Below, piece by piece: positions 4,364 through 62,026 of a stretch of 64,000 nt of DNA; position 1 is the first letter of the stretch; every line of letters starts with the position of its first letter. The position numbers and the translations under genes were made by a program. The stretch spans positions 273,119 through 337,118 of the forward strand of contig OZ251457.1 in NCBI GenBank assembly GCA_965242565.1, given 5' to 3'. Below the pieces are notes generated by a model, which saw only the letters and a program-made list of their open reading frames with translations, was not told the origin of the DNA and did no database searches. This DNA comes from Dehalococcoidia bacterium. Its GTDB lineage: Bacteria > Chloroflexota > Dehalococcoidia > Bin125.

Positions 4364-4499
4364 TGGGTGTACCCCCCCCCCCTCAAGACGTAACCGCGAA
4401 CGCTGTTCAGTGCCATGTTGCCGCTCCGAATCGCACTCCCAAAAGGGCGCAAGGTGGTCCGCCGGAAAAGCGCAGTCGCGTCCCCGCAGGCTAGCACGG

Positions 4500-5110: not shown

Positions 5111-5141
5111 AATGGCGCGAAAAGGGAGCGGTCGGCGCCCG

Positions 5142-5780: not shown

Positions 5781-5807
5781 GCCGCGATGGTAGCAGAACG
5801 CCCGCCC

Positions 5808-6800: not shown

Positions 6801-6880
6801 TGTGTCGGCTTCTCCTCTGCGGGGCACGGTAGCGCGGTATTGCGCAATGGGGCGATACTGCGCGGCAGGGGAGGTGCGCG

Positions 6881-9172
6881 ATGGCTGCAACGAACGGCGC
6901 AACGGTCAGGGCGGAAGACTGTCTGCCGCAGGTGGAGGGCGAGCTGCGGGCGGCGGGGTTGGAGGGGGATGTACGGATTGTGCGCGACCGCTGGGGGGTA
7001 CCGCATGCGCGGGCGGGCAGCGCGCGGGATGCGTTTTTCGCGCAGGGCTTCTGTCTGGGGCAGGAGCGGACCTGGCAGCTCGAGCTGTACCGGCAGATGG
7101 CGCACGGTCGGGCGGCGGCGCTGCTCAACGAGGGGCTGCTGCGGATTGATCGGCTCAACCGTCGGATGGGCTACGGGCGCGACGCGGCGGCAGAGTGGGA
7201 GGAACAGTCGGACGACGCGCGGATGATCCTTCAGGCCTACGCGGACGGGGTGAATGCGGCGATTGCGGCGGGGCCGAGGCCGCTGGAGTTTCACCGGCTG
7301 GAGCACGAGATGTCGCCCTGGTCGCCGGTCGATTCGCTGGCGATTCTGAAGATGGTCTCGGCCAATGTGCATTGGTCGCTGAAGATCAGCAACGCGCGGC
7401 TGGCGGCGCAGCTGGGCGTAGAGGCGGCGACGGCATTGATTCCCGACGTGCCCGACGGGGGCGCGATGATCACGCCGGCGGGCGCGACCTGGGCTAATGG
7501 GGCGAACGGTCGGCACGCCTGGGAGGATGAGTTGCGCGCGCTGGCGGAGGAGCCGGGGATGCGGCGGGGCGGGGCGGACGGCTCAAACTGCTGGGTGATC
7601 GACGGGGCGCACACGGCGTCGGGCGCGCCGCTGGTGGTGGGAGATCCGCATCTGTCGCTGTCGGTACCGGCGCAGTGGTACCTGATGCACATGGAGTGCG
7701 AGGAGTTCAGCGTGGCTGGCCCGTGCAGCCCGGGCTATCCGGGGCCGGTCTACTACGGGCACAACGGGCGCGTGGCGTGGACGATGACGCACGCGCAGGG
7801 CGATCGCTGGGATGTGTACCGCGAGCGGATCACGCGCAACGGAGAACCGAGCGCGGAGTTTCGCGGGGAGCAGCGTCCGCTCCAGCGGCGCGACGAACTG
7901 ATCGAGGTGCGCGGGAGCGAGGCGGTGACGGAGACGGTCTGGTCGACCGAGCACGGCCCGGTGGTGCAGGGCGATCCGACGACGGACGACGAGGTGCTGG
8001 CGGCGCGCTTCGCGCTGGCGGAGCCGTGCCATGATTTCGACGGGATGCTGCCGATCTTCCGCGCGGCGACGATTGCGGAGGCGCGCGCCGGCTTTCGGCG
8101 CTACGACTCGATTTCGGGCAACTTCGCGTTCGCCGATCACGAGGGGGAGATCGGCTACCAGTACACGGGGCGGACGCCCAGGCGTCCGGCGGCGCTCGCG
8201 CCCGTGCCCGGCTGGGACGGATCGCACGAGTGGGACGGCGAAGTACCGGCCGATGAGCTGCCGCAGGAGACGAACCCCGAGAGCGGGGTGATCATCACGG
8301 CCAACAACCGCACGACGACGCCTGACTATCCGCACTATCTGAGCTGGAGTCAGACGCCGTTCCGCGCCGACCGGCTGCGCGAGCTGCTGAGCGGTCGGGA
8401 CGACTGGACGGCGGAGGCGATGATTGCGGTGCAATCCGACCAAACCAGCCTGCACGCGCGCCAGCTGGCGGCGCGGGCGGCAGCGGCGCCGAGCGACGAT
8501 CCGGCGGTACGCGAGTTACAGGCGCTGCTGGGCGGCTGGGACGCGCGGCTGTCGCGCGATTCGGCGGCGGGGCTGGTCTATCACGAGCTCTGCGAGCAGG
8601 TCGCGCGTCGCACGGTGCGGCGCTTCTTCGACGATCCGATGCGCGTCGTGCCGGGGATGGCCGATGAGCGGCGAATCGTGCATGAGCAGTTGAAGCGCAA
8701 CTCCGCGCTGACGCTGCCCGACGGTCAACACTGGGACGAGGTGCTGGTCGAGGCGCTGGCTGAAACGGGCCGCGTGCTGCGCGAGCGGCACGGCGCGGAC
8801 CCGAGCGGCTGGCGCTACGGCGACGCGCACAAGATTCTGTGGAAGCACAATCTGGGCCGCGACGCCGAGGGCGCGGCGATGTTCAACGTGGGCGAGATCG
8901 AGACGGGCGGCGACGATCACACGCCGAATAACGCGGGGACGATCTACGGTCGGCCCGGCGATCACGGAACGTCGTACCGGCAGATCTTCGATCTGCAAAA
9001 CCTCAACGGGGCGCGCGTTTGCATTCCGCCGGGCAACTCGGGGCGGCCGGGGTCGCCGCACTACTGCGATCACCTGGAGCGCTGGCGCGATGTGGAGTAT
9101 TTCCCGCTCTACGTGGAGTGGGGGGAGATTGAGGCGAACGCGGAATCGGAGCTGCGGCTCAGGCCCCGGTAG
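6881..9172 (+). CDS. Penicillin acylase / acyl-homoserine-lactone acylase family Ntn hydrolase (S45)
   Basis: IVRDRWGVPH; GSNCWVIDG (beta-chain N-terminal Ser); DPHL; TANN; PPGNSG..SPHY.D. No obvious signal peptide. Confidence 0.92.
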   Translation: MAATNGATVRAEDCLPQVEGELRAAGLEGDVRIVRDRWGVPHARAGSARDAFFAQGFCLGQERTWQLELYRQMAHGRAAALLNEGLLRIDRLNRRMGYGRDAAAEWEEQSDDARMILQAYADGVNAAIAAGPRPLEFHRLEHEMSPWSPVDSLAILKMVSANVHWSLKISNARLAAQLGVEAATALIPDVPDGGAMITPAGATWANGANGRHAWEDELRALAEEPGMRRGGADGSNCWVIDGAHTASGAPLVVGDPHLSLSVPAQWYLMHMECEEFSVAGPCSPGYPGPVYYGHNGRVAWTMTHAQGDRWDVYRERITRNGEPSAEFRGEQRPLQRRDELIEVRGSEAVTETVWSTEHGPVVQGDPTTDDEVLAARFALAEPCHDFDGMLPIFRAATIAEARAGFRRYDSISGNFAFADHEGEIGYQYTGRTPRRPAALAPVPGWDGSHEWDGEVPADELPQETNPESGVIITANNRTTTPDYPHYLSWSQTPFRADRLRELLSGRDDWTAEAMIAVQSDQTSLHARQLAARAAAAPSDDPAVRELQALLGGWDARLSRDSAAGLVYHELCEQVARRTVRRFFDDPMRVVPGMADERRIVHEQLKRNSALTLPDGQHWDEVLVEALAETGRVLRERHGADPSGWRYGDAHKILWKHNLGRDAEGAAMFNVGEIETGGDDHTPNNAGTIYGRPGDHGTSYRQIFDLQNLNGARVCIPPGNSGRPGSPHYCDHLERWRDVEYFPLYVEWGEIEANAESELRLRPR

Positions 9173-45891: not shown

Positions 45892-46737
45892 CTACCAGTC
45901 GTCCAGACCGAGCAGCCGGCGTCCCAACGGCGTCAGCTCGGCCGGCGGCGACTGCTGCTCGCGGCGGCGCGGATCGCCCGGGAAGGCGCGCGGATTCTGG
46001 AACGCGGGGTGCATCCGCTCGCGCCAGGACGCGACACGCTGCTCCCGCAGCTCCGCGTTCTGCGGCTGCGCGGGCGCCATTCGCACGTACTGCGCGAGGC
46101 GCGGCTTGTCGGAGCGGTTGCGGCTGTTGCCGTGCGGCAGCGCCGAGTGCCAGATGATGAAGTCCCCGGCCTCCGCCGCGATCTCCCGCGGCGCGCTGAT
46201 CGCGTCGTGGCGCAGATCCAGCCGCTGGTCGCGGATCTCCTCGTCGGGCCGCCCCTGCGCCCACTCCGAGACCCAGCGATGCACCCCCGGCACGCACTGA
46301 AAACCGCCTTCGCCCTCGGCGGTGTCGACGAGGTAGAGCACGCCCTGCACCTCGTAGGGCAGCGGCGTCCGGCGCACATCAATGTCCCAGTGGATCATGC
46401 CCGGGTGGTCGTATTCGGGCGCGTCGGAGTTGGGCGGCGGCTTGAGGTTGGCGCGATCGAGGAAGACCCAAAGGTCCTCGCGGTCGAAGAGATCGACGAA
46501 CAGCTCGTAGACGCGCGGGTTCTGGCGCACATTCCAGAGCGCCTGGTGGTGGTACATCTCCACCATCCCGTTGGGGCGGTGCGGCTCGCGGTACCAGCCC
46601 GACGGATCGTCGCGGTCGAAATCCAGGAAACCCCAGATCGCGTCCACCACAGCCTCAACCTGCTCGCGCGGAATCAGCTGCGGCACGACAAGGTAGCCGT
46701 GCTCGTCGAAGAAGCGGCGTTGTTCGTCGGTCAGCAT
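45892..46737 (-). CDS. Phytanoyl-CoA dioxygenase family protein
   Basis: FFDEHGYLVV, IHWD, AGDFIIWHSALPHG. Confidence 0.9.
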   Translation of the reverse strand: MLTDEQRRFFDEHGYLVVPQLIPREQVEAVVDAIWGFLDFDRDDPSGWYREPHRPNGMVEMYHHQALWNVRQNPRVYELFVDLFDREDLWVFLDRANLKPPPNSDAPEYDHPGMIHWDIDVRRTPLPYEVQGVLYLVDTAEGEGGFQCVPGVHRWVSEWAQGRPDEEIRDQRLDLRHDAISAPREIAAEAGDFIIWHSALPHGNSRNRSDKPRLAQYVRMAPAQPQNAELREQRVASWRERMHPAFQNPRAFPGDPRRREQQSPPAELTPLGRRLLGLDDW

Positions 46738-46760
46738 GGGGCAACCTCAGTCTGCGATCG

Positions 46761-47354
46761 TCAGTCCGGGAACGGCGCGTCGACGCCGGGCGGCATATCG
46801 ACGTCGAAGGTGTTCAGCGCGATCGAGACGAGCGCGTAGTAGCCCATCACCGAGGCGACCTCAAAGACGCCCCGCTCGCCCACCAGCTCCTTGAGCGCCG
46901 AATAGCGCGCATCGGAGACACGCTTCGTCTCAATCAGCTCGCGCCCGAAGGCGTAGACGGTCTCGTGGCGCGGATCGTCGAACTGCGGGGTTTCGCCCTC
47001 GCGGATCGCGTCGATCGCGGCCTGCGGCACGCCCGCCGCCGCGCCCAGCCGGGCGTGCGCCCAGAACTCGAAGTTGGCGCGCCACTCGCCGCCGACGGTG
47101 AGGATCGCGACCTCCAGCAGGTCGGATGGCAGCGATGTCCCGTAGCGCAGGGCCGCCCCCAGCTGTTGCGCCGCGTCGCCGATCTCGGGCGACTGAAAGA
47201 GCGCGTTGAATGGCCCGATCAGCGCCCCGTCCTTCCCCGCCAGCCCGCCGTGGGGACGGTCGGGGTTGGCGCGCGGCCCGCTGGTGATGTTCTCCCAGAG
47301 AGCGCGTTGTTCATCGGTGAGGTCGTCGAATGTGACGGGTGCGAGGCGTCCCAT
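46761..47354 (-). CDS. Carboxymuconolactone decarboxylase family protein
   Basis: LIGPFNA, EVAIL, FEFWAH, MGYY. Confidence 0.88.
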   Translation of the reverse strand: MGRLAPVTFDDLTDEQRALWENITSGPRANPDRPHGGLAGKDGALIGPFNALFQSPEIGDAAQQLGAALRYGTSLPSDLLEVAILTVGGEWRANFEFWAHARLGAAAGVPQAAIDAIREGETPQFDDPRHETVYAFGRELIETKRVSDARYSALKELVGERGVFEVASVMGYYALVSIALNTFDVDMPPGVDAPFPD

Positions 47355-47411
47355 GTGGTGCTCCGTTCGGTTGGGTGTTCATGGTACGGGGGTTTTGGGA
47401 GGGCTGGTAAG

Positions 47412-47620
47412 GGTTGTTCGGGGCTGGTCGGTTTTGGTCGGGGTGTTCGGGGCTGTGCCTTATCTGGTCGGGGCGATTCTGCGTGTTCGGGGTTGTTCGG
47501 GGTTGTTCGGGGCTGGTCGGTTTTGGTCGGGGTGTTCGGGGCTGTGCTTTATCTGGTCGGGGTGATTCTGCGTGTTCGGGGTTGTTCAGGTTTGTTCGAG
47601 TTTGGTCAGGGTGTTCGGGG
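47412..47620. repeat. 89-bp direct repeat (two copies) built from approximately 10-bp units
   Basis: Units start at 47412 and 47501 (ggttgttcggggctggtcggttttggtcggggtgttcgg...). Confidence 0.85.
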
Positions 47621-47739
47621 GGCTGCTGTAGTGAGGTGGGTGGCGGTGGGCATCGGTAGGTCCGTTGTTCTGTTGTGGAGGGGTGACGGTATCACGGCGC
47701 GGCGTGATGGGACGAGATGGGGCATCGAGGCGGCTCGAG

Positions 47740-48110
47740 GGTGATTCCCGCTCGGGGGCGGGAATGACGGGAAACGGGGGCGGAATGGAGGGAGTGGAGG
47801 ACGGAATGGGGCGCGATGTGACGTTGGAGGCGGCTTGGGGGCGGTTCCCGCTCGGGGCGGGAATGACGGGAAACGGGGGCGGAATGACGGGAAACGGGGG
47901 CGGAATGACGGGAAGCGAGGGGCGGGAATGACGGAATTTTAGGGCGGGCACTGGCGCCGCCCTCGGCGAGATACCCCCGTTCTAGCCGGGGGCAGGCCCC
48001 GTGGCAAGCGCGGGTATGACGGAGAAGTGGTGGCGGGTGATGACGGAGAAGTGAGGGCGGGTGATGACGGAGAAGTGAGGGCGGATATGACGGAGGGGGA
48101 GTGGGGGTGG
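47740..48110 (-). repeat. Reverse-oriented palindrome cluster (C twice, A with insert) with half-site arrays
   Basis: ttcccgctcggg(g)gcgggaatgacgg at about 47742 and 47843; cgagatacccccgttctagccgggggcagg..gcgggtatgacgg at about 47967-48022; tandem atgacgg units follow each. Confidence 0.9.
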
Positions 48111-48139
48111 TGGGGCGACTGTGGTGGGGAAGCGGGGGG

Positions 48140-50686
48140 TTAGGGGTTGCGGAGGTGTTGGGGGAGGAGGTCGTCGGGGTAGGCGGCGCCGACGAGGCCT
48201 TTGCGTTTGAGGGCGGCGAGTTGGCGGGCGGTGTAGCCAAGCAGGCCGCGGTAGATTTCGTCGTTGTGTTCGCCGAGCAGGGGCGGCGGGAGGCGGAGGC
48301 TGTTGGGGGTGCGCTGCATCTGGATGGTGAGGCCGGGGTAGTCGTGGGTACCGACGCCGGACATGGTGAGTGGTTCGAAGAAGCCGATTTCGCGGAGGTG
48401 GGGGTCTTGCAGGGCTTCGACGGAGTCGAGCAGTGGAGCGGCGCAGACGCCGGCGGCTTGGAGGGCGTGGAAGAGCTCGTGTTTGTCCCAGGCGGCGGTG
48501 GCGGCGCTGATCAGGGCATCGAGCGCGTCGACGCCGCGGAGGCGTTGCTGCGCGGTTGCGAAGCGGGCGTCCTGCGGGGCGTGGCCGATGTCGGTCTCGT
48601 CGGAGCCGGCGTGGGTGGCGGCGAGCACATCGCAGAGGGCGACGAACTCGGCGTCGGTCGCTACGTCGATGGCGATCCACTGGTCGTCGCCGGCGCAGGG
48701 ATAGACGTTGTGCGGGGCGTGCCAGCGGTGGCGGTTGGCCTGGGAGGGCGGGTTGAGGCCGTTCATGGTGTAGTCGAAGAGGTATTCGGCGAGCGAGGGG
48801 ATGAAGCTCTCGTTGAGGGGCATTTCGATCAGTTGTCCCTCGCCGGTCGCTTCACGGCGGCGGAGAGCCATGAGGACGGCGACGGCGCCCTGGACGCCGG
48901 AGAGTCCGTCGCTGGCGAGGGTTTCGCCGATGCCGTCGGGGCCACGGTCCGGGTAGCCGCGGAGGTGGGTGTGGCCGACCATCGCCTCGACGTGCAGGCC
49001 GAAGGCGCGGTAGCTGCCGTAGGGGCCTTCGAGGCCGAAGGCGGGCATGCGGAGCATGATCAGGCGGGGGTTGACCTCGCGGAGTTCGTCCCAGCCGATG
49101 CGGGCGCGGTCGATGGTTTGGGGGACGTTGTTTTCGATCAGGACATCGCACTGCGCGATGAGTTTGAGGAAGGCTTCGCGGCCTTCGGGGGACATAATGT
49201 CGCAGGTCATGGAGCGCTTGTTGCGGGCGTGGGAGTTGAAGGAGGCGAAGCGATTCCAGGGGTCGTCGCCGAGTTCGGCGTCGGGGTACTGCGGCTGGAC
49301 GCCGCGCTGCGCGGCGCGCAGCATTTGCTCGCGGGTGGGGGCGTTTTCCGCACCGCGGGTGTAGGGCTGGATGCGGTTGACGGGTTCGACCTGGATGACG
49401 TCGGCGCCCCATTCGGCGAGCAGCTGGGCGACATGCGGGCCGGCCCAGACGACGGTGATGGCGGCGACGCGCAGGCCCTCGAGCGGGAGGGGGAGCGGAT
49501 CGCGTGGTCCGGCGGCGCGTGGTTCGGCGTCGAGCGGTGCGAGGTCGAGGACGGCGCGGGCGTGTTCGCCGAGGTGGGGGGCGCGGCGGGGCGGGTCGGG
49601 GGAGGCGGCGGAGAAACGGAAGGGGTGGCCGGGGTAGAGCAGGGGGGCACCGTGCCAGTGGGTGATTTCATGCCACCAGCCGCGGGCTTGCAGTTGTGGG
49701 TCGTTGAAGAGGTCGGCGGGGGTCATGACGGCGCCGGCGAGCAGGCCGAGCGACTGGGCTTCGGCAACGACGTCGAGTTTGGCGCGGTCGGCGAGGAAGT
49801 CGGCGACGGCCTGGTCAACCTGATCGCCGAAGCCGCTGACGGGGCCATCGGCTTCGTTGACGGCCTGGAGCAGGTCGGGGCGGTTGATCCATTCGAGCAG
49901 GCGGGGCAGGCGGAGGCCGGAGCCGACGATGCTGACGAAGCCATCGGCGCAGGGAAAGATGCCGAAACCGACCCAGCGGCTGCCGGGTCGGGCGCGGCCG
50001 GCGGCGACGCCGCTGTAGGCGGCGGCGGTGAGGTGGATGGTGCGGCGGTCGCGGCAGCCGGCCTGGCAGCGGTAGACGCTGATGTCGATCCAGTCGCCGG
50101 CGCTGCGGTCGTGTTCGGAGCGTCGCAGGGCGAGGAGGATGGCGAGTGCGGCGGTGGCGCCGGCATGGTAATGGGCGTAGTGCCCGGCGACTTTGAGCGG
50201 CTCGCGGTCGGCGGCGCCGGTGGCGTGGAGCGGTCCGCCGATGGCCTGGAGGGTGAGTTCGGAGCCGCGGTAGTCGCGGTAGGGGCCGGTTTGTCCGAAG
50301 GGGGTGATGGAGCAGAGCACGAGGCGTGGGTTGAGGGCGTGGAGGATGTCCCAGCCCCAGCCGGCGGCGGCGGCTTCGCCGGGCGCGCCGTCTTCGACGA
50401 CGGCGTGTACCTGGCGGGCGAGGCGTCGGACAGTGGTTGCGCCGTCGGGGGTGTGCGGATCGAGGACGATGGATTCCTTGTTGGTGTTGAGGTGGAGAAA
50501 GAGGCCGGAGGCTTCGATGTCGGGTTTGTCGTCGGGGAAGGGGCCGAACTGCCGCGAGGGGTCGCCGCCGCGGGGTTCGACTTTGATGACGCGCGCGCCG
50601 AAGTCGGCGAGCAGCTTGGTCGCGTAGGGACCCGCGACATTGCGGGAGAGGTCGAGGATGGTGAGTCCGTCGAGTGGGCCGGCCAT
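48140..50686 (-). CDS. CaiB/BaiF family III CoA transferase, two fused domains
   Basis: AGPYATKLLADFGARVIKVE and WAGPHVAQLLAEWGADVIQVE; PHLGEH / PLLGEH ends. Confidence 0.92.
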   Translation of the reverse strand: MAGPLDGLTILDLSRNVAGPYATKLLADFGARVIKVEPRGGDPSRQFGPFPDDKPDIEASGLFLHLNTNKESIVLDPHTPDGATTVRRLARQVHAVVEDGAPGEAAAAGWGWDILHALNPRLVLCSITPFGQTGPYRDYRGSELTLQAIGGPLHATGAADREPLKVAGHYAHYHAGATAALAILLALRRSEHDRSAGDWIDISVYRCQAGCRDRRTIHLTAAAYSGVAAGRARPGSRWVGFGIFPCADGFVSIVGSGLRLPRLLEWINRPDLLQAVNEADGPVSGFGDQVDQAVADFLADRAKLDVVAEAQSLGLLAGAVMTPADLFNDPQLQARGWWHEITHWHGAPLLYPGHPFRFSAASPDPPRRAPHLGEHARAVLDLAPLDAEPRAAGPRDPLPLPLEGLRVAAITVVWAGPHVAQLLAEWGADVIQVEPVNRIQPYTRGAENAPTREQMLRAAQRGVQPQYPDAELGDDPWNRFASFNSHARNKRSMTCDIMSPEGREAFLKLIAQCDVLIENNVPQTIDRARIGWDELREVNPRLIMLRMPAFGLEGPYGSYRAFGLHVEAMVGHTHLRGYPDRGPDGIGETLASDGLSGVQGAVAVLMALRRREATGEGQLIEMPLNESFIPSLAEYLFDYTMNGLNPPSQANRHRWHAPHNVYPCAGDDQWIAIDVATDAEFVALCDVLAATHAGSDETDIGHAPQDARFATAQQRLRGVDALDALISAATAAWDKHELFHALQAAGVCAAPLLDSVEALQDPHLREIGFFEPLTMSGVGTHDYPGLTIQMQRTPNSLRLPPPLLGEHNDEIYRGLLGYTARQLAALKRKGLVGAAYPDDLLPQHLRNP

Positions 50687-50855
50687 GGCGGCTCCCGGCA
50701 GGATTTTGGGGTCGCGTTGCATGGTAGCCCTGCGACGCAACTGTTTTCGCCGGTCGTGCGGCGGTCTATCTGGTCGGGTCGGCCAGGGCTGGTCAGGTTT
50801 GGTCGGATTTGTTCGGGTTTGGTCGGCTCTGTTCAGGTCTGGTCGGGGTGCGGGC

Positions 50856-52604
50856 TTACTCCAGTTCGATGACTTCGACGGTTGCGCCGGCGTTGAGGAG
50901 GATGTCTTCGAGCCGGTCGGCATCGGGTTCGCTGAGGCCGGCTTGGACGGTGACGGGGGCGCGTTCGACGAGTCGCTTGGCGGTGAGCAGGGGGATGTGG
51001 AGGGTGGAATGGACGGCGTCGACCACGGCGAGGCGGTTGGTTCCGTAGTCCTCGAGGATGACTTTGAAGCCGGCGGGTTCGTCTTCTTCTTCGTCGTCGA
51101 AGGGCGGCTCGATGGCCGGCTCAACGGCAGGTGCGACGGCTTCGGGGATTGGCGCGGGCGCCGGTGCGGGAGCTGCGAGGCCGGGTGCGACGGGAGCTGC
51201 GAGGCCGGGTGCGGCAGCGGGCGCGATCCCAGGTGCGGCGGCGGGCGCAGCGCCGGGCAGGGCGAAGTCGCCGAGGATGGAGGAGATGTCGAAGTCGTCG
51301 ACGGCGATCGGCATGTAGCGGCGGGGGAGTTGGTAGCTGAAGGCGCCGACGTCGCGTTCGAGGTCGAAGGTGTCGACCCAGTCTTCGCTGCGGTAGAGGC
51401 CGCTCATTTCGTCGATGAAGCCGATCACGCCGAAGCGTCGGTGGAAGAGGCCGTGTTGGCGGAGTTCCTGCATGTGCTGGAGGTAGCCGCCGTCGTTGCT
51501 GACGATGAGCACATCGCACTCGCGGTCGCGCAGGCCAGAGAGGGCATGGTGGATCGCCTCGTCGACGACGGGGCGTCGGCGGCCGGTCGCGTCGACCTGG
51601 GACTGGAGGAGGACGGGTCGGAAGCCTTCTTCGCCGTCGAGGTAGACGGCGAAGCCGGTGATGGCGTCGTTGTGCTGGAGGAAGGAAATGAATTGGGTGT
51701 TGCCACCGGCGGCGCGCTGCTCGACGAAGCGGCGGAGTTCGCTCCAGCGAGGGCGGGTTTCGGCGTTGAGGCGTTCGGGGCCGATCAGGTTGCCGAGCGA
51801 CCAGTCGATGTTTTCGTGGTCGATCAGGACAAGGATGTTGCGCGGGCCGGCGGGCGCGTCCGGCGGCGGAGCGTAGGGCGGTGGCGCTTGCGGAGCGGGC
51901 GGAGCGGTGAAGTCCGGGGTGGCATCAATGGCCTGGCGGAGTTGTCTGCCGAAGGGTGATTCGAGGGAGACGGCGGGCGGCGGCGGTGGAGGCGGTTGCG
52001 GCGCGGTCTGCGGCTGGGTGGCCTGGAGGTAGCCCTCCGGGTAGCGAGTGCGCTCGTCGGACTCGTGGTAGACGTGGGGGGGGACGGCTTCGACATCGGT
52101 GACGAGGTCGAGGGTTTCCAGTTCGGTGCCGATGAAGTCGGTGCGGCGGTCGAAGTGGGCGACGCGGAGTTTGCGTCGGGAGCCGTCGGGTCGGATGCGG
52201 AGGTTGAGGAGGGCGACGGTGATTTCGCCGGCGTAGCTGTCTCCGCCGACGTAGAGCACGTCGTTGTCGGTGTTGCGGAGGTTCTGGAGCTCGTTGACGA
52301 TGTTGCGCTTGACGATGCGCCAGGAGTCGATTTCGTTGTAGTCGGTGAGGACGAGCTCATAGCCGAAGCGTTCGAGGGCGTTGTAGAAGGCGGTGGAGGG
52401 CTGGCGGCGCTGAAAGTAGCGCGCGGTGACGTAGTAGCCGCCGGTGCGCATGCTGGCGGCGTAGCGCTTGAGTTCTTCAAAGTCGGTGCGGTCGCCGCTG
52501 GTGGGGGGGCGTCCGAGCACGTCCTTGAAGGCGCGGTAGAGGTAGTCGCCGTCGACGACGAGGATGAGAGAGTTGGTGTCTTGGGATTCGTCGGGGGTGG
52601 TCAA
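50856..52604 (-). CDS. Tandem NYN (PIN-like, LabA/DUF88) domains fused to a ribosomal bL12 (L7/L12) C-terminal domain
   Basis: LVVDGDYL; LIDHENID..VVDEAI..VSNDG; Ala/Pro linker; FKVILEDYGTNRLAVVDAVHSTLHIPLLTAKRLVERAP..AGATVEV. Confidence 0.85.
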   Translation of the reverse strand: MTTPDESQDTNSLILVVDGDYLYRAFKDVLGRPPTSGDRTDFEELKRYAASMRTGGYYVTARYFQRRQPSTAFYNALERFGYELVLTDYNEIDSWRIVKRNIVNELQNLRNTDNDVLYVGGDSYAGEITVALLNLRIRPDGSRRKLRVAHFDRRTDFIGTELETLDLVTDVEAVPPHVYHESDERTRYPEGYLQATQPQTAPQPPPPPPPAVSLESPFGRQLRQAIDATPDFTAPPAPQAPPPYAPPPDAPAGPRNILVLIDHENIDWSLGNLIGPERLNAETRPRWSELRRFVEQRAAGGNTQFISFLQHNDAITGFAVYLDGEEGFRPVLLQSQVDATGRRRPVVDEAIHHALSGLRDRECDVLIVSNDGGYLQHMQELRQHGLFHRRFGVIGFIDEMSGLYRSEDWVDTFDLERDVGAFSYQLPRRYMPIAVDDFDISSILGDFALPGAAPAAAPGIAPAAAPGLAAPVAPGLAAPAPAPAPIPEAVAPAVEPAIEPPFDDEEEDEPAGFKVILEDYGTNRLAVVDAVHSTLHIPLLTAKRLVERAPVTVQAGLSEPDADRLEDILLNAGATVEVIELE

Positions 52605-52706
52605 GGCGCGTTCCTTTGTAGGAGGAGATCGGAGTTTCTTGCGTACGGTCCGTGGTCAACGCTCGGGTCAGGCTCTGTGCGGTGCTCATGCGGCGCTCAG
52701 AGGCTA

Positions 52707-54281
52707 TCACGGCGGCCTGGCATGGTGCGACGTTGGGTGGCGGGAATTGGTCGTGCTCGGCCAGGTCTTTTGGCCGAGCGGGACGGCGATGAGGGGATCG
52801 ACCGAGGCAGGCAAACGGATGTTGGGCAGGGCGGACGCCGCACCGAAAACGTCGAGCGATGATGCAGGGTCGTAGTCGTCCACGGTGGTGACGGTGACGG
52901 GCGTGCTGCGGTTGGGAAGCCGATAGTCGAAGGCGTGTATGTCGCGTTCGAGGTCGATTCGATCGATCCAATGCGTCGAGTAGCGCGCGTTCATCAGCTC
53001 GACGAAACCAACGACGCCGATGCGACGGTCCGGATCCGACTCATGCAATGCTTCGAGATCGTCGTAGTAGTCGCCGTCGTGGCTGACGAGCAGGATGTCG
53101 ACGCTGCGGTCGCGGATGGCGGCGAGGTTCTTGCAGATGGCTTCGTCGACGACCGAGCGTTGGCGGTACGGTTCGTCGGGGCGGGATTCGCGTTGGAGGA
53201 GAACGGCTTCGAATCCGATGCTGCGGAGGTAGCCGGCGAAGCCTTTTTCCCTTTCGCCATCTTGGAGGAACGCCTTGATCACGAACGGCCCGTCGTCCGC
53301 GCGTTGTTCGACGAACTCGCGCAGCTTGTTCCAGTCCGGGCGCGTTTGTCGATTGAGCGACTTCGGCCGAATGATCTCGATTAGGGCTCCGTCGATGTTC
53401 TCGTGGTCGATCAGAACCAGCAGGCCGCGCGATTTCGCCGGTGGGGCGCTATCAGTATCGCGCGCCTGGGGCGGTTGGGGTTTTGGCTCGGGTTCGGACG
53501 GAGCCTCGTCGGTGGGTGGATGTTCGTCCGCGTCGCCGTCGCCAGGGCGGAAGCCTTGATTCGCTTCCAGGTAACCAAGCGGGTACGGAGAGGGTGCAGG
53601 TTGGGCGGAGGCTTCATTTTGCGATTGGGAGTCCGATGCGGATTCGCGGGCTGCGTGAAGTGCGGCGCCGAGTGCAGTTTCGTTTTCGTCGGCGTCCTGG
53701 TCGATCGATCGGCTATTGCTCGCGCGGTGGGCGGCGACATCGGCCTCGGCGTAGATATGCGCAGGAGCTGCGTTGATGTCGTCGACGATATCGAGCAGGC
53801 GGAAATCGTCGTTCTCGAAATTGGTGCGGGGCTTGAAGTGGGCGATGGTTATGCTGCGCGGCGAGCCGTCGGGTCGCTTGCGTAGATTGTTCAGAGCCGC
53901 CGTGAGCTTGCCGTTGTAGCTGTAGCCGCCGACGTAGAGGATGTCATGATCGGTTGTGCGCAATGAATCGAGTTCTGCGATGATGTTGTCCCTGGTCGGC
54001 CGGTGCGAGTCGTGGTCGCCGTCGCCGTTGAGGGTGAGATCGTAGCGCAGGCTCTCGAGCCTGTTGTAGAACGAGTCGGCCTGGGGTTGGCGGCGGTCGA
54101 AGTAGCGAGCGTCTACGAGATAGCGGTCGGAGCGCATGGACGCGGCGCGGCGCTTGAGCTGATCCAGGTCGACGCGTTCGTCGGTCGCCGGAGGGCGGCC
54201 CAATACATCGCGGAGCGCGTAGAAGAGATAGCCGCCGTCGACGATTAAGGCGAGGCGTTGAGTTGCGCTTGATTCTGTCAT
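52707..54281 (-). CDS. Tandem NYN-domain protein (paralog without bL12 domain)
   Basis: LIVDGGYL; LIDHENID..VVDEAI..VSHDGDY..DLERDIHAF. Confidence 0.85.
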   Translation of the reverse strand: MTESSATQRLALIVDGGYLFYALRDVLGRPPATDERVDLDQLKRRAASMRSDRYLVDARYFDRRQPQADSFYNRLESLRYDLTLNGDGDHDSHRPTRDNIIAELDSLRTTDHDILYVGGYSYNGKLTAALNNLRKRPDGSPRSITIAHFKPRTNFENDDFRLLDIVDDINAAPAHIYAEADVAAHRASNSRSIDQDADENETALGAALHAARESASDSQSQNEASAQPAPSPYPLGYLEANQGFRPGDGDADEHPPTDEAPSEPEPKPQPPQARDTDSAPPAKSRGLLVLIDHENIDGALIEIIRPKSLNRQTRPDWNKLREFVEQRADDGPFVIKAFLQDGEREKGFAGYLRSIGFEAVLLQRESRPDEPYRQRSVVDEAICKNLAAIRDRSVDILLVSHDGDYYDDLEALHESDPDRRIGVVGFVELMNARYSTHWIDRIDLERDIHAFDYRLPNRSTPVTVTTVDDYDPASSLDVFGAASALPNIRLPASVDPLIAVPLGQKTWPSTTNSRHPTSHHARPP

Positions 54282-54438
54282 CGCGTTCTCCGGTTGATAT
54301 CGAAACGCTGGACATTCAGTTGGGTCGGCGGGTCTTCCCGCTCAGCGCGCTGCGGAGCTTTTTTCGCCGACGCTGGCAGCGTACGGATGAGTCCGTGCGT
54401 TTGCAAGCGCGAGCTGATTGGCTGGACGGTTGTGGGCT

Positions 54439-57072
54439 TCATGTCGTGCGGGCCTGGACTGTCACGGGGCCGCCGGCGGCGCCGAGGAGGCGCTGGGGCG
54501 CGCCCTGGTTGTGGAGGATGGGGAGCCAGACGGCGCCGGGAGGGACATCTTCGCTGATTTCGGCCTGGGCGGTGAGTTCTGCGCCGCCGCCTGTGGTTGC
54601 GCTGATTCTGACCGACGCGCCTGCGGTGATGCCTCGTTCAGCGGCGTCGGCGGGGTGGAGTTGGACGGTGTCGGCGCGGTGCAGGAGGTCGGCGTCGGCC
54701 GCGCCACGGGCCGCCGAGAGCCGGTCGGTGTAGAGGTCGCGGCCGGTCAGCAGCGTGAGGCCGTCGCCGCTCGCGCCCACCGCCTCGACCGGCAGGAGGC
54801 GCTGGGTGGCCGCGCCGTTGGTCGGCTGGCGCGACTGCGTCGCCGCCGCCCCCGGACCGGTCAGGGCCGAGTAGCGCGCATCATGCGCGGCGATGGCGGC
54901 GCGGGCTTCGGCGGCGTTCTGCGGCATTTGGGGAGCGGGGATCACGGTCGGCTCGGCGTCCTCGTCCTCGGCGGCGATGGTGATGTCCATCGCGGGCAGG
55001 CCGGCCGCGAGCAGCGTCAGCCAGTCGGCCAGGCCGCGCCCGTTGCGCTGCGCCTCGGCGGCGGCGCGCAGGCGCAGAATCTGGCGGTCGGCGTTGGTGA
55101 TGTGCCCGTCCTTGCCGAAGGCGGAGATGTCGGGCAGCACGTGGGTGGCGAGTTCGACGGTTTGAGTGCGGACCTCGTCGATCACGACCAGCAGGTCCAG
55201 CGCTTCGAGCGCCGCGCGCGTGGCGTCCTGATCGGGGTGGAGCAGCATCGGGTTGTCGCGGGCGACGAGCAGCGCCTTCAGCTCGCCGGCGCGGGCGGCT
55301 TCGAGCATTTGGGCGACGCCGAGCCCGCCCTCGCCGGGCGCAATGCCGAGGTCGCGCAGACCCACGCTGTTGGCTTCGGGCGGCAGCACGTGAAGCGCCG
55401 CGGGCGCAGCCTCGGGCCCGGCCAGGATCACGGCGAGGTTGGCGGCGGCGCGCACCTGCGCAGCTGCCTGCGCGGCGTTGGCGCGGGAGGGCGCGACGAC
55501 GATCGCGGCGGCTCCGCCGCGGCGGCGGGCGAGCGTGGCGACGGCGTCGTCGAGTTCGTTGCGAGTGGCGGCGGTCACGTCGGAGAGGCCGTCGAGCTCG
55601 GAGAGCGAGGCGCGGATGTCCATGTCGCGCAGCAGCCCGGCGGCGAGCGCCTGCGCCACGCCGGCGAGATCGCCGTCGGACGGGTGGACGGCGTGCCGCT
55701 CATCGACGGCGTAGTCGGCGAGCGGGTTGCGGCGCGCGGAGATGCTGACGAGCGCCGCGCCGTTGTTGGCCACGGCATCCTTAATCCGCACGCCGAGCAC
55801 GTTGTTGGAGGCGGAGATGTCGTCGCCGATAGCCACGATCAGATCCGCCGACTCAACCGACGTGAGGCGCGAGGGCAGGTGCTCGGAGCCGAAAGCGTCG
55901 CGCAGTGCGTCGCCGATCGCGGCGGTGACGGGGCCGAGCGAGGAGTCGAGGTTGCGCACGCCGAGCCGCCGGGCGAGCGCGCGGAGGGCGAACAGCTCTT
56001 CCGTAGGGGATTGTCCGGAGCCGAGGATGCCGACGGCGGCCGGGCCGTGCTCGGCGAGGACGGCCCCGAGCTTGCTTGCGGCATCGGCGGCGACCGCTGC
56101 GCCGTCCTGCTCGAAGGCGTCTTCGCCGCGCCCGATCGAGGCGGCGCGCAGGCGGTCCTTGTCGCGCGTCTGGTCGTAGCCGAAGCGTCCGCGCACGCAA
56201 ATCTGGCTGCGCGAGACATCGTTGCCGTTGCCCGGCCGCACCTGCACGCCGCGCCCGTCGCGGACGCCCATCTGGATCGTGCAGCCCATCGAGCACTCCG
56301 TGCAGGTGGTCGTGACCCACTTGTCGGGCCGCGCCACCCACTTGTTGGGCGCTTCCATCAGCGTGGCGGTGGGGCAGACATCGACGCACGCGCCGCAGAA
56401 GTCGCAGTTGGACTCGTCGATCTGCCCGCCCGCGCCGAAGGCGATCCGGGTGGTGAAGCCGCGCCCGGCCAGCGTGATCGCGGTCGTGTGGCGCAGGTCG
56501 TCGCAGGCCCGCACGCAGCGGGTGCAGATGATGCACATCTGCGGGTCGAACTCGAAGAAGGGGTTGGCGCGGTCCGGTTCGGGCTGCTGGTGGCGGTAGT
56601 AGGTGCGCGCCTCGTCGATGTAGGGCTCGACGTTGGCGCGCCCCACATCGGCGGCGTCGCAGGTGGTCTGGAGCTCGCAGCGGTAGTTCTTCGAGCAGGT
56701 CACGCAGCGGTGCGTGACCTCGTTGTCGCGCAGGCAGATTTCGCCGGTGCGGCAGTGCTCGACACGGTGGCAGGTGAGGCAGCGGTCGGAGTGGTTGGCC
56801 AGGATCACGGCCAGCACTTCCTGGCGCATCTCGGTCACGGCCGGGGTGTCGGTGCGGACCACCATGCCGTCACTCACCTGGGTGGTGCAGGAGAGCGGAA
56901 GGCCGCGCATGCCCTCGATCTCGACCGCGCAGGTGCGGCAGCCGGCGTAGGCGGGCAGCCCGTCCAGGTAGCAGAGGTTGGAGATGGGGAAACCGGCGTT
57001 CTTGATGACTTCGACGAGCGGCGCGCGCTCAGGCGCGTCGACGGCGACGCCGTTGATGGTGATCCGTGCCAT
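54439..57072 (-). CDS. NuoG / formate dehydrogenase alpha-like Fe-S and molybdopterin-fold oxidoreductase subunit
   Basis: 2Fe-2S (C..GCRTC), H...C..C, CIICTRCVRAC, CDFCGACVDVCP, CTECSMGC..ICVRG, C-terminal molydop-binding domain. Confidence 0.88.
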   Translation of the reverse strand: MARITINGVAVDAPERAPLVEVIKNAGFPISNLCYLDGLPAYAGCRTCAVEIEGMRGLPLSCTTQVSDGMVVRTDTPAVTEMRQEVLAVILANHSDRCLTCHRVEHCRTGEICLRDNEVTHRCVTCSKNYRCELQTTCDAADVGRANVEPYIDEARTYYRHQQPEPDRANPFFEFDPQMCIICTRCVRACDDLRHTTAITLAGRGFTTRIAFGAGGQIDESNCDFCGACVDVCPTATLMEAPNKWVARPDKWVTTTCTECSMGCTIQMGVRDGRGVQVRPGNGNDVSRSQICVRGRFGYDQTRDKDRLRAASIGRGEDAFEQDGAAVAADAASKLGAVLAEHGPAAVGILGSGQSPTEELFALRALARRLGVRNLDSSLGPVTAAIGDALRDAFGSEHLPSRLTSVESADLIVAIGDDISASNNVLGVRIKDAVANNGAALVSISARRNPLADYAVDERHAVHPSDGDLAGVAQALAAGLLRDMDIRASLSELDGLSDVTAATRNELDDAVATLARRRGGAAAIVVAPSRANAAQAAAQVRAAANLAVILAGPEAAPAALHVLPPEANSVGLRDLGIAPGEGGLGVAQMLEAARAGELKALLVARDNPMLLHPDQDATRAALEALDLLVVIDEVRTQTVELATHVLPDISAFGKDGHITNADRQILRLRAAAEAQRNGRGLADWLTLLAAGLPAMDITIAAEDEDAEPTVIPAPQMPQNAAEARAAIAAHDARYSALTGPGAAATQSRQPTNGAATQRLLPVEAVGASGDGLTLLTGRDLYTDRLSAARGAADADLLHRADTVQLHPADAAERGITAGASVRISATTGGGAELTAQAEISEDVPPGAVWLPILHNQGAPQRLLGAAGGPVTVQARTT

Positions 57073-57220
57073 CGTGGTCCTTCCGTTGCGGAGGGCGGCT
57101 TTGGCTTTGGGCGCAGTCTAGCAGCGCATCGGTTGAGGCATGGAAGGCATGGGTTGACTTGTGCCCGAAGACCACTTACCTTTGCCCGACCGAGAGGTGA
57201 GGGAGAGGAAGGTCGCGGCG

Positions 57221-58783
57221 ATGAGACACGCAGCATTCGTGTTCGCACGAACGTTCTGTGGGGGGGGGGGGGGGGCAACTCTCCTAGCTAGCGCCGTGGC
57301 GCTGACCATAGCGGTGGCTTGGGCGACGACAGCCGCGAGCGCGCAAGGGTCATGTCCGACGCTCGCCGATTTGCGACCGGAACTGAATGCCCCGGTGACT
57401 GTCTCGGGTTCGTGGTCTTCTTCGGATTGCGAAGCGCCGTGGCGAGAGGATCGCTACTCGGATCGATACCGCCTGCACATCTCGGAGCTCGCGTGGGTGA
57501 TGATCGATCTCACTTCGCGTGTCGACACATGGCTCCGCCTCGTCGATGCGGACGACCGTCGACCAGTGGACAACGACGACATCAGCTACTCCAGTCGTAA
57601 CCTTAACTCTCGGATCGTGCGGCCGCTTGAACCGGGGACATACTACGTCGAAGCGTCGACCTACGGCCCTCGAGCAACAGGCTCCTATGCCTTGCGCATC
57701 AGCGTCGACGACTGCAAGGCGATCGAGATCGCAGTCCCGTACAGCAGTCGTGAGAGCCTGTCGCCTGACGGCTGCCACGACCTGTACGACCTCGCCGACT
57801 ACGCGGACATCTACAGCTTCCAGCTGGATGTCGAGGCCGAGCTGACCATTGACTTGGGGTCCAGAGCATTCAACGCATTCGTGCGCCTGCTGGACGATCG
57901 CGGAACCGAGATCGAACACGACAATGACGACGGCAACGGACAGGACTCGTGGATCGAACTGGTGCTTCCGGCAGGGGCGTACCATATCGTCGCAACGGAC
58001 TACAGCAGGGGCCGAGGGGAAGGCTCCTACGAGCTTCGCGTGGCAGTGGAGTGGGCAGAGAGCGTCTACAGAGACGAAGTTCATGAACCATGTGAGCCGG
58101 ATCGACATCTCCGCACCAGCCCATACTGGAAGGACGATCCGCTGGACGTCCAATCCGTGAAGCAGCTGATGACAAGGGTGCTGTTTCAGATCGCAGCTGA
58201 TGATGACGTTACCCTCTGCACCAACTCCGACTACAACGACTTCGGCGCACCAAGGCCGTGGCATGGAGCGGGAGGGTATACCGGCGGCCACGCAGGGTGG
58301 GACGTTCAGACGACGAACGTCTACCAAGACCGCACGGCGAACGTGCCGTTCTACTCTCTGACCGACGGCGAGGTCGTCTATGTCGATTCCATGTCGCTTG
58401 GCGCTATCGGGGTGTATGACGCCGACGAGGGCTTCACTGTCTACTACCTTCACGCACGCCACGTGTACGTGCGTGAAGGCCAGCGAGTGTCGGTCGATCA
58501 GCGTCTCGGAATCCAGGGAGACGCAGGTGTTCCGGGGAAGGAGCACATCCATATTGAGGTGCATCGCGGTAGCCGTACCGTCCCTGACGAGCAGGGAAAT
58601 TTACGCCACCACTTTGGAGGAGCATTCAACGCTCCTGGCCGTGGCGGTGCTAACACCCTGCTGCTGTGGCACGAACAGCTGAATTACCTGTGCGAGGCGT
58701 CGGCGGGCAGCCAGCTTCGGCTGGACAATGGACGGTGTCCGTCACTAGACGCGACTGACGCGCCCAGCCCGGATCTCAGATGA
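57221..58783 (+). CDS. Secreted protein with two PPC-like domains and an M23 peptidase; G16 tract in the signal-peptide region
   Basis: DTWLRL..DNDD..NSRI..PGTYYVEAST (PPC-like, twice); HAGWD, YLH and HIH M23 zinc motifs. Confidence 0.85.
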   Translation: MRHAAFVFARTFCGGGGGATLLASAVALTIAVAWATTAASAQGSCPTLADLRPELNAPVTVSGSWSSSDCEAPWREDRYSDRYRLHISELAWVMIDLTSRVDTWLRLVDADDRRPVDNDDISYSSRNLNSRIVRPLEPGTYYVEASTYGPRATGSYALRISVDDCKAIEIAVPYSSRESLSPDGCHDLYDLADYADIYSFQLDVEAELTIDLGSRAFNAFVRLLDDRGTEIEHDNDDGNGQDSWIELVLPAGAYHIVATDYSRGRGEGSYELRVAVEWAESVYRDEVHEPCEPDRHLRTSPYWKDDPLDVQSVKQLMTRVLFQIAADDDVTLCTNSDYNDFGAPRPWHGAGGYTGGHAGWDVQTTNVYQDRTANVPFYSLTDGEVVYVDSMSLGAIGVYDADEGFTVYYLHARHVYVREGQRVSVDQRLGIQGDAGVPGKEHIHIEVHRGSRTVPDEQGNLRHHFGGAFNAPGRGGANTLLLWHEQLNYLCEASAGSQLRLDNGRCPSLDATDAPSPDLR

Positions 58784-60682: not shown

Positions 60683-62026
60683 GTGCCTATGGCTGTGCCC
60701 GATGTGCCGGGGTCTCTGACGCTGCTGCTGCCGGATCACTGGGCGGCGTCTGATCGCGCGTTGGAGGCGATTGAGTATCCCAATCCGGCCTGGACGTTCC
60801 AGCGCGGACATTTCGGCGAGCTGGCGCTGACGCCGCTGCCGGGGCATCGCAACTCGGCCGTCAGCACCGAGGTCACGATGCAGTTCCTCGAGTGGCACAA
60901 GCAGCACGAGGAGGGCGTGTTGCACGGCTTCAACATCGGCTACGCGCCGACCGATGACGAGGGCCGCGCGCCGGGCCTGGCGGCCGCGACCTCCTGGATC
61001 GCGCCGGATCAGGTCGAGGCGCTGCGCGAGGAGCGCGGCGAGCCGCTGGGCGAGTACGACCCCGAAAAGCCGTTCCCGGCCTGCGCGCCCGCCTTCGTGC
61101 TGGAAATCCGCTCGCCCTATCAGTCGCTGCGGCAATGCACCGACAAAATGCGCCTCTGGATGCACTTCGGGACACGACTCGGCTGGCTCTTCGACCCCGA
61201 CAATCTGGAGGTGCGGATCTACCGCCCCGGTCGGCCGGCGCAGCGGCGAATGAAGCCGCCCCAGCTGCGCGGCGAGGAAGTGTTACAGGGGCTGGTCTTC
61301 GACTGCCGCCCGATCTGGGAGGAGCTGGCCGAGCGCGGCGAGCCCTCGCGCTCCAACCAGCCGCTGCTCGACTGGCGGGCGCACGGCGACATTCGCGGCG
61401 CGGTCGATCCGAGTTATCGCCCGGGCGGATCGGACCCGGCGCTGCAAACAATCCGTGAGGGCCCGCTGCCGCTGCTGGACCTCTGGCTGCCCGATGAGTG
61501 GCCGCTCGACGACGCGGCGCTGGCGCAGCTGAACGAGCGCAATCCGCAGTGGGCGTTCGAGATGGGCCTCGACGGCGGCTTGCAAATTACCGATCCGAAC
61601 GAAGCGGAAGCCTCGCCGCGCACAAGCAGCAGTAGCACACTGATGAACCCCGACGCGCCCCGCGCCCCGCAGGTGATGAGCGCCGCGACCTCCTGGGTAT
61701 CCGACGAGCGGCTGAAGAACGCAAAGCGCGCCGACTCCGCAGGCACGATCGAAGTAGTGCCCAACTTCGTAGCCGAGATTCGCTCCGGCTCACAATCGCT
61801 CACGGATCTCCAACACAAAATGCTGCGCTGGATCTACTACGGCGTGCAACTCGGCTGGCTGCTGGACCCCGATACCCGCACAGTCTGGATCTACCGCGAA
61901 AACCAGCCCCCCGAAAAAGTAGTAAGCCCCCGCCAACTGTCGGGCGAAGATGTAATGGTCGGCTTCACGCTGGAGCTGGACCAAATCTGGGACTGGGCGG
62001 GGGACCTGGAGGAGGGCGAAGGGTAG
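60683..62026 (+). CDS. Double Uma2 (DUF820) domain protein
   Basis: PAFVLEIRSP..KM..W...GTRLGWLFDP and PNFVAEIRSG..KM..W...GVQLGWLLDP. Confidence 0.88.
   Translation: MPMAVPDVPGSLTLLLPDHWAASDRALEAIEYPNPAWTFQRGHFGELALTPLPGHRNSAVSTEVTMQFLEWHKQHEEGVLHGFNIGYAPTDDEGRAPGLAAATSWIAPDQVEALREERGEPLGEYDPEKPFPACAPAFVLEIRSPYQSLRQCTDKMRLWMHFGTRLGWLFDPDNLEVRIYRPGRPAQRRMKPPQLRGEEVLQGLVFDCRPIWEELAERGEPSRSNQPLLDWRAHGDIRGAVDPSYRPGGSDPALQTIREGPLPLLDLWLPDEWPLDDAALAQLNERNPQWAFEMGLDGGLQITDPNEAEASPRTSSSSTLMNPDAPRAPQVMSAATSWVSDERLKNAKRADSAGTIEVVPNFVAEIRSGSQSLTDLQHKMLRWIYYGVQLGWLLDPDTRTVWIYRENQPPEKVVSPRQLSGEDVMVGFTLELDQIWDWAGDLEEGEG

Follow-up and report, generated by a model that had tools for sequence, protein, structure and literature searches.

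The window analysed here is a stretch of 64,000 nucleotides (GC content ~0.69) from a Dehalococcoidia bacterium (GenBank assembly GCA_965242565.1, contig OZ251457.1, positions 273,119 to 337,118). It contains two neighbouring genes for proteins with tandem NYN-like domains, one of which, P0001, continues into a hinge and C-terminal domain (CTD) of the type found in the ribosomal stalk protein bL12. The other gene, P0002, encodes an unfused protein and lies upstream of P0001 in the same orientation, with 102 nt between them. The two products share 44% identity over 491 aa (E 1e-109) and are paralogues, as a first-pass annotation made from the letters of the DNA had read them. P0001 starts with a TTG codon, which aligns with the ATG starts of its orthologues; these have 65–83% identity to it and an identical architecture, and the orthologues of P0002 have 57–78% identity.

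The tail of P0001 is readily recognised as a bL12 domain. The Pfam model PF00542 (Ribosomal_L12) matches residues 513–578 with 46.9 bits (cut-off 25.9), and a profile of 12 fused homologues aligns with residues 23–119 of E. coli bL12, hinge included (E 3e-16). In the AlphaFold2 model the tail has a pLDDT of ~90 and superposes on the crystal structure of the E. coli L7/L12 CTD (1ctf) with a TMt of 0.95 and a root-mean-square deviation (rmsd) of 0.7 A (67 columns, 45% identity). Against the canonical bL12 CTD of the host, identity is 40%. The translation contains the Ala/Pro-rich hinge (AAPAAAPG...) and the acidic run (DDEEEDE) that the first-pass annotation had described together with the CTD, and all three elements stand. 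The hinge is encoded in part by a 24-nt tandem repeat (TRF arrays at 51167–51257), and the length of the tether is polymorphic, the orthologues measuring 543 to 586 aa. In one sponge-metagenome contig (run X7) the acidic run is shortened in frame by 3 nt, at 51091.

What P0001 lacks is the N-terminal dimerisation and bL10-binding domain of bL12, its first 450 residues being NYN-like. The bL12 equivalog TIGR00855 scores 41.7 bits, below its cut-off of 84.4, and is matched only over model positions 40–124. A canonical bL12 of 125 aa is encoded after bL10 elsewhere in the genome (G000:C1:2372137-2372442); because this normal rplJ-rplL pair is present, the fused gene is best regarded as an extra, truncated copy of bL12 without the bL10-binding domain, and P0001, to judge from these features, is not a stalk protein. 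When longer proteins were searched with the CTD alone, only P0001's own family was retrieved (8 proteins from 384 candidates).

The fusion is genuine and conserved. PF00542 is carried by 30 of the 40 clusters of P0001 homologues, and the fused homologues comprise two groups: clade A (P0001-like, 543–586 aa) and clade B (579–606 aa in the protein search), to which a 673-aa open reading frame (ORF) of genome G357 also belongs. We checked the junction between the NYN and bL12 parts on Logan contigs from sequencing runs of three studies, and found it bridged by X2 (50700–53682, 0 differences), by X4 (50700–53057) and by the sponge-metagenome run X6 (50792–54450, 60 differences). Given the proportion of fused clusters and the bridging contigs from three studies, we reject the possibility of an assembly chimera, and both the bL12 fold and the continuity of the gene hold.

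The body of each protein is built from NYN domains of the LabA type. A C-domain subfamily profile of 28 sequences, the C-terminal domains of P0001 and P0002 plus 26 single-domain relatives, matches the LabA-like NYN structure 2qip (E 2.4e-5) and MARF1 (E 0.007). The Foldseek searches returned 2qip (E 4.1e-5, TMt 0.76) and the MARF1 NYN domain (E 1.1e-4) for the model of P0001, and 2qip (E 2.1e-6, TMt 0.78) and again the MARF1 NYN domain for that of P0002, each being a match to one or other of the two domains, not specified further. By Pfam, PF01936 (NYN) recognises residues 289–427 of P0002 (28.5 bits, cut-off 24.2). N-domain and C-domain alignments match each other in hhalign with a probability of 98.5% (E 3e-15); the two domains are homologous, and each protein is therefore an internal duplication, which agrees with the tandem arrangement first proposed. 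The AlphaFold2 model of P0001 has three folded parts (~10–170, 255–420 and 510–582) with low-confidence linkers between them. A whole-protein profile run against PDB sequences found only bL12 chains, through the tail, and no NYN structure; in a protein atlas the NYN clusters stand at 0.88–0.89, under the atlas's lead threshold. Two sets of matches were set aside: those of the C-domain profile to ABC-F proteins (E 0.002–0.16), for which the VSHD..F motif was the sole basis, and those of Foldseek to GT-B and epimerase folds (TM 0.2–0.3, rmsd ~20 A), which are meaningless overlaps of two Rossmann folds.

The acidic residues of the four domains are as the first-pass annotation had listed them. The C-domain of P0002 has the full set of four (LIDHENID / VVDEAI / VSHDGDY), and that of P0001 keeps three of the four (DHEN / VVD / SNDGG, within the motifs LIDHENIDW / GRRRPVVDEAI / VSNDGGY). 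Both N-domains are degenerate, having lost the VVD aspartate (VK/TR, with Lys or Arg in its place). In the PIN superfamily an exceptional catalytic role is given to the carboxylate that opens the crossover helix, according to the main text of the superfamily's classification (PMC5499597), and in our own reading of that text for the S1, H4 and S4 motifs, the VVD aspartate would be this helix-4 carboxylate. The fourth Asp, which P0001 is missing, varies most among them, and 19 of the 28 subfamily members have D there. Wherever the subfamily is invariant or reaches 90% conservation, P0001 keeps the residue; this includes the S1 and VVD aspartates and the first one of S-x-D. The subfamily also has conserved extras of its own, RPRW and a C-terminal DLExD..AF..LPR..FDP extension. 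The features of both genes and of their immediate neighbours are collected in Table 1.

Table 1. Genes, domains and neighbouring genes at the P0001/P0002 locus (coordinates are those of the window).
Feature	Coordinates	Strand	Basis
P0001, 582 aa: tandem NYN-like domains, then bL12-type hinge and CTD	50856..52604	(-)	ORF and translation
P0001 N-terminal degenerate NYN-like domain, residues 10–178	52071..52577	(-)	hhalign; model pLDDT ~80–90
P0001 Pro-rich disordered linker 1, residues 179–251	51852..52070	(-)	pLDDT <50; linker length differs between orthologues
P0001 C-terminal LabA-type NYN domain, residues 252–447	51264..51851	(-)	alignments, 2qip profile, fold matches
P0001 Ala/Pro-rich hinge and acidic patch, residues 448–510	51075..51263	(-)	translation, pLDDT <50
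P0001 bL12-type CTD, residues 511–582	50859..51074	(-)	PF00542, 1ctf superposition
P0002, 524 aa: unfused tandem NYN-like paralogue	52707..54281	(-)	ORF and translation
P0002 N-terminal degenerate NYN-like domain, ~residues 8–178	53748..54260	(-)	53% identity to P0001 N-domain; pLDDT 80–93
P0002 C-terminal NYN domain, residues 283–480	52842..53435	(-)	PF01936, Foldseek
P0002-family short C-terminal motif IA-x-PLGQK, residues 497–505	52767..52793	(-)	13 sequences
Upstream neighbour: molybdopterin oxidoreductase (formate-dehydrogenase/NuoG-like), syntenic anchor	54439..57072	(-)	Pfam
Downstream neighbour: double family-III CoA-transferase	48140..50722	(-)	Pfam PF02515, 2 stretches; 88.5% identity in L004

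P0002 and its relatives end differently. Their IA-x-PLGQK motif follows a variable linker and occupies the place that the bL12 head has in the fused paralogue. All 13 sequences share A499, Q504 and K505, and almost all of them G503, and most orthologues terminate directly after the motif; the motif may be a partner-binding peptide. Elsewhere in the family, 12 of 145 representatives end in -AA, in 10 of them as D/E/N-A-A after an acidic stretch. Such ends are reminiscent of C-terminal degradation tags.

How widely is this architecture distributed? An exhaustive HMMER search with residues 1–450 of P0001 against 1.84 billion representative proteins returned only 145 at E<=1e-3, of which 24 reach E<=1e-30, and the named homologue records come from Dehalococcoidia metagenome-assembled genomes. 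Across the 145 relatives Pfam finds NYN in 53, Ribosomal_L12 in 2 (the representatives of clades A and B) and OST-HTH in 2. Cullin_Nedd8, Pyr_redox_2 and Inositol_P occur in one member each, where a real fusion and a gene-call artefact are both possible. Within a sample of 400 genomes of the class, and among the matches listed, NYN-NYN proteins appear only in the window's own family, in 10 of its 25 genomes (5/5 of the window's genus, 2/2 of genus g4 and 3/15 of genus g2), the other genomes showing canonical bL12 only. A query without the tail, run on 401 genomes across the phylum, found two, namely G000 and one genome of the same family. Among the genomes sampled, the protein family is thus restricted to a single Dehalococcoidia family.

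The two halves of the fused proteins have different histories. P0001 and the clade B proteins are 76–78% identical in the C-domain and 38–40% in the N-domain; between P0001 and P0002 the corresponding values are 49% and 53%. We built quick trees (LG+G4) for the N- and C-domains separately. On the C-domain, the 11 fused rows all fall into a single clade (SH-aLRT 100). On the N-domain they come apart, clade A grouping with P0002-type proteins and clade B with other unfused proteins. A combined quick tree of both domains was ambiguous between one and two origins of the fusion, and it was the separate trees that settled the matter. The approximately unbiased (AU) test, from which five long rows were excluded (P0054, P0061, P0071, P0076 and P0083), rejects monophyly of the fused rows for the N-domain (p 0.0006) and, for the C-domain, the grouping seen in the N-domain tree (p 0.005), the latter being a group that was named after the tree had been inspected. 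The discordant trees and the AU tests together show that the C-domain-plus-bL12 unit has a single origin: the C-terminal NYN domain and the bL12 tail were fused once and then inherited as a module, and clade A is a recombinant whose N-domain stems from a paralogue of the P0002 kind.

The pairing of P0001 with P0002 is a different matter, and it is not obligatory. Only G401 repeats the adjacent pair of a fused and an unfused gene. in G400, an assembly of 2.6 Mb and of unestablished completeness, the fused gene stands without any paralogue; G357 carries its clade B gene at a different locus, with no adjacent two-domain paralogue and with two C-domain-only relatives; and G138 has a single unfused gene. 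The conservation looked for at this locus therefore concerns the fused architecture and does not extend to the gene pair. In G155, from another genus, a run of four family genes lies behind this molybdopterin oxidoreductase gene (locus L041, G155:C3:2511000-2522000, at 3289–7966). They encode a 560-aa protein with a degenerate C-domain, two short N-domain-like proteins (~226 and up to 308 aa) and a tandem-NYN protein of 462 aa. A structure prediction for the complex of P0001 (residues 1–450) with P0002 (residues 1–490) gave a score of 0.01 and a mark of 0.32, which is evidence neither way.

The genes flanking the pair are metabolic by Pfam. The oxidoreductase is 82–86% identical in L003 and L005–L007, where the NYN-NYN gene beside it reaches 75% in L003 and 47% in L005–L007. 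No mobile-element or defence genes were seen beside the pair in the Pfam annotation and the conserved synteny, and PADLOC assigned 0 families to P0001 and P0002. Rfam gave no family over 46000–58000, the promoter scan returned 0 sites, the terminator-like sites are at chance level (4 observed against 3.6 expected), and among the sequencing runs listed no RNA dataset contained the locus. G-rich tandem repeat arrays (units of 89, 29, 21–24 and 10–20 nt) occupy intergenic DNA at 47401–48095, downstream of the CoA-transferase gene, and at 50789–50847, within the 130 nt just 3' of the P0001 stop. Many short contigs begin or finish at ~50784–50826 in all four sequencing runs compared, which suggests a dispersed repeat. 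Further away lie genes for a 540-aa protein with M23 peptidase and PPC domains (57161–58783, + strand) and a 447-aa protein with two Uma2 stretches (PF05685, putative restriction endonuclease; 60683–62026, + strand), neither with an apparent link to the fusion.

Ten canonical Dehalococcoidia bL12 CTDs share 32 invariant columns; P0001 keeps 19 of these, clade A as a whole 13 and clade B as a whole 9, and those retained are mostly core hydrophobics and glycines. In helix 4 the host's bL12 reads K-I-N-V-I-K-A-V-R, and P0001 R-L-A-V-V-D-A-V-H. At the positions that we take to be the GTPase contacts of E. coli bL12 (K65/V66/I69/K70/R73), P0001 has R/L/V/D/H, as first noted, and comparison with the host's bL12 bears out the conclusion drawn then that the factor-binding face is altered. 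The conserved charged and hydrophobic face of helices 4 and 5 is not kept in the fused head, its hydrophobic columns being kept for the most part. The head is retained and folded, and its canonical binding face is free of ribosomal constraint. We also estimated the ratio of non-synonymous to synonymous substitutions (dN/dS, Nei-Gojobori) for P0001 against G401 and G400. In the C-domain the two comparisons give 0.18 and 0.13, in the N-domain 0.18 and 0.11; taken together with the identity between clades, these values point to the C-domain as the most constrained part of the protein.

P0001 shares features with several known systems, and differs from each of them: (i) With the LabA-like NYN proteins (PF01936, COG1432; 2qip, VPA0982) the C-domains share the fold (TMt 0.76–0.78) and the motifs vDgeN, vvD and SxDgDf, but here there is a tandem duplication with a degenerate first copy, there are the extras of the subfamily, and P0001 falls under the Pfam threshold. 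(ii) NYN-(OST-HTH/LOTUS) proteins, for example MARF1 and the bacterial PIN-OST-HTH proteins, likewise combine an NYN domain with a small recruiting accessory domain, and are predicted, in the main text of PMC5499597, to be stand-alone RNA-degradation systems whose accessory domain recruits substrates. The accessory part of P0001, in contrast, is a fragment of a ribosomal protein on a long Ala/Pro tether, a protein-binding module and not an RNA-binding winged helix. (iii) Ribosomal bL12 (L7/L12) is matched by the tail in hinge, acidic patch and CTD fold, whereas P0001 has no bL12 N-terminal domain, lies outside the rplJL operon, stays under the TIGR00855 cut-off, has a changed charged face and evolves fast. 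(iv) Rae1/YacP, whose family we take to be PF05991, belongs to another NYN family and has no bL12-like domain, and neither P0001 nor P0002 gave a Pfam match to NYN_YacP at E<=1. The Bacillus subtilis protein is nonetheless a precedent for an NYN domain at the ribosome, being a ribosome-associated endoribonuclease whose cleavage depends on translation (PMC12407103). (v) Cami1, a CRISPR-associated ribosome-dependent RNase, links, as here, a nuclease to bL12, and its cA4-bound complex with the 70S ribosome (PDB 8phj) is among the fold matches of P0001, through the bL12 chain. Cami1 is named as an L12-mediated interaction in 10.1101/2023.04.14.536948. It binds the ribosomal bL12, whereas P0001 itself bears a bL12 head; the two are unrelated in sequence and there is no CRISPR context here. 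A prior description of an NYN domain joined to a bL12 CTD was not found in full-text searches of the literature, and the main text of PMC5499597 mentions neither L12 nor a ribosomal protein. The architecture is apparently undescribed, as the first-pass annotation had supposed.

The reading that we favour, with a probability of roughly 0.4, is that P0001 is a single-chain, lineage-specific RNase candidate of the tandem-NYN kind (LabA-type, PIN-like) that carries a tethered, bL12-derived recruiting module. Its anatomy and history are well supported: the tandem NYN protein arose by an internal duplication, a copy of the hinge and bL12 CTD, without the bL10-binding domain, was fused once to the C-terminal NYN domain, and in the window's clade this module recombined onto a P0002-like N-domain. 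The N-terminal copy, having lost the helix-4 carboxylate, is best read as a pseudo-nuclease or a scaffold, and the C-terminal copy, with its core metal-binding aspartates, is a likely active RNase. The flexible tether of ~60 residues and the head may catch a partner, and bring either that partner or the nuclease to an RNA substrate. We propose a recruiting role for the head because of the analogy with the NYN-OST-HTH proteins and because of what the stalk does for elongation factors (10.1101/2023.04.14.536948). Since the head derives from bL12, one of the translational GTPases (EF-Tu, EF-G, IF2 or RF3) was probably its original partner, and cleavage would in this way be tied to translation; since the canonical binding face is no longer conserved, its present partner may be another. 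P0002 would be a paralogue in its own right, ending in a short motif where P0001 has the head, and not an obligate subunit. A bolder version turns the head into a bL12 'fishing line', which takes translational GTPases or other bL12-docking proteins off the stalk so that the nuclease cleaves the RNA accompanying them (tRNA of ternary complexes, or rRNA/mRNA at the GTPase centre), or into a bait whose seizure by a foreign factor fires the nuclease; we regard it as unlikely.

Several observations weigh against the recruiting-RNase reading. P0001 itself gave no match to the Pfam NYN model at E<=1, so that of the two family assignments expected from the first-pass annotation, the bL12 model holds for P0001 and the NYN model for P0002 alone; in the C-domain of P0001 the S-x-D-x-D motif reads SNDGG, its second Asp missing; and the pTM of its model, 0.37, is uninformative on how the domains pack. 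LabA-type NYN proteins are moreover not known to have nuclease activity, and PMC5499597 treats them as a group of unknown function with predicted active and inactive members. As for the head, only 4 of 13 charged invariant columns of canonical bL12 are kept in P0001, 1 in all of clade A and 0 in all of clade B, and its dN/dS, 0.41 against G401 and 0.65 against G400 (72 codons, dS 0.5–1.3), equals or exceeds that of the disordered linkers, among which the values for the hinge are unreliable. With the charged face lost, canonical GTPase binding is doubtful and the head could be drifting. These same findings (the core and glycines kept, and 12 of 13 charged columns not kept across clade A) speak for another possibility, that the head has been repurposed or is a passenger, its fold maintained and its binding of translation GTPases gone, so that the core would work without any link to translation and the head would serve a lineage-specific partner, RNA binding, solubility or spacing, or simply decay. 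That unfused relatives bear other short tails at this place (the PLGQK motif, or acidic tails with -AA) fits such a view. However, the fold is intact in both fused clades in spite of a divergence of 22–24% in the C-domain and 60% in the N-domain, the head is strictly tied to one variant of the C-domain, and its dN/dS is still <1. Of the alternatives this is the one we take most seriously, while considering it somewhat unlikely.

The first-pass annotation had instead proposed a heteromeric RNase, in which P0002 is catalytic and P0001 is catalytically dead and targets translation factors or acts as a decoy. The two genes are indeed adjacent and co-oriented, 102 nt apart, the pair recurs in G401, the C-domain of P0002 alone has all four acidic residues, and PIN-like domains commonly dimerise. 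But G400 has the fused gene and no paralogue, G357 has no two-domain paralogue beside its own, and the supposedly dead C-domain of P0001 is the best conserved part of the protein, with all core residues kept and only a variable Asp missing, all of which makes this scheme improbable. The same annotation had also suggested a role in dormancy or anti-phage sensing. In a defence scheme of this kind the bL12 look-alike would bait foreign proteins that target the stalk and trigger the NYN nuclease, resulting in abortive infection or dormancy, and it can draw on the fast-changing surface of the CTD, on a paralogue content of the slot that varies up to the four family genes of G155, and on an NYN-NYN identity of 47% where the neighbouring oxidoreductase has 82–83%. 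Yet PADLOC found nothing in either protein, the surrounding genes are metabolic and conserved in their synteny, and nothing points to defence, so that we hold it to be very unlikely. Least probable in our view is a non-catalytic regulator, whose tandem NYN domains would bind RNA or protein without cleavage, as in the cyanobacterial LabA. The LabA-like group does include predicted inactive members, and LabA itself is known only genetically, as a regulator of KaiC feedback (PMC5499597, main text). At the present locus, degeneration is plain in two of the four domains. However, across the C-domain subfamily the S1, helix-4 and S4 Asp residues vary little or not at all, as expected for an active metal site. 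Taken together, the original interpretation is partly supported: its description of the two proteins is borne out, and its heteromer and its defence role are poorly supported.

On the ribosome, the bL12 CTD serves to recruit EF-Tu, EF-G, IF2 and RF3. A conserved CTD off the ribosome, tethered to a nuclease-type domain, would amount to a natural experiment on what the head can do by itself and would open a possible new route for coupling RNA cleavage to translation. The locus also illustrates module-wise evolution, in which a single fusion was followed by an exchange of N-domains between tandem paralogues. If the fishing-line or bait reading were true, these proteins would represent a new class of translation-coupled RNase or sensor made from a ribosomal-protein module; if, on the other hand, the head has lost factor binding, the finding would be one of lineage-specific co-option of a ribosomal domain in uncultured, sponge-associated Dehalococcoidia.

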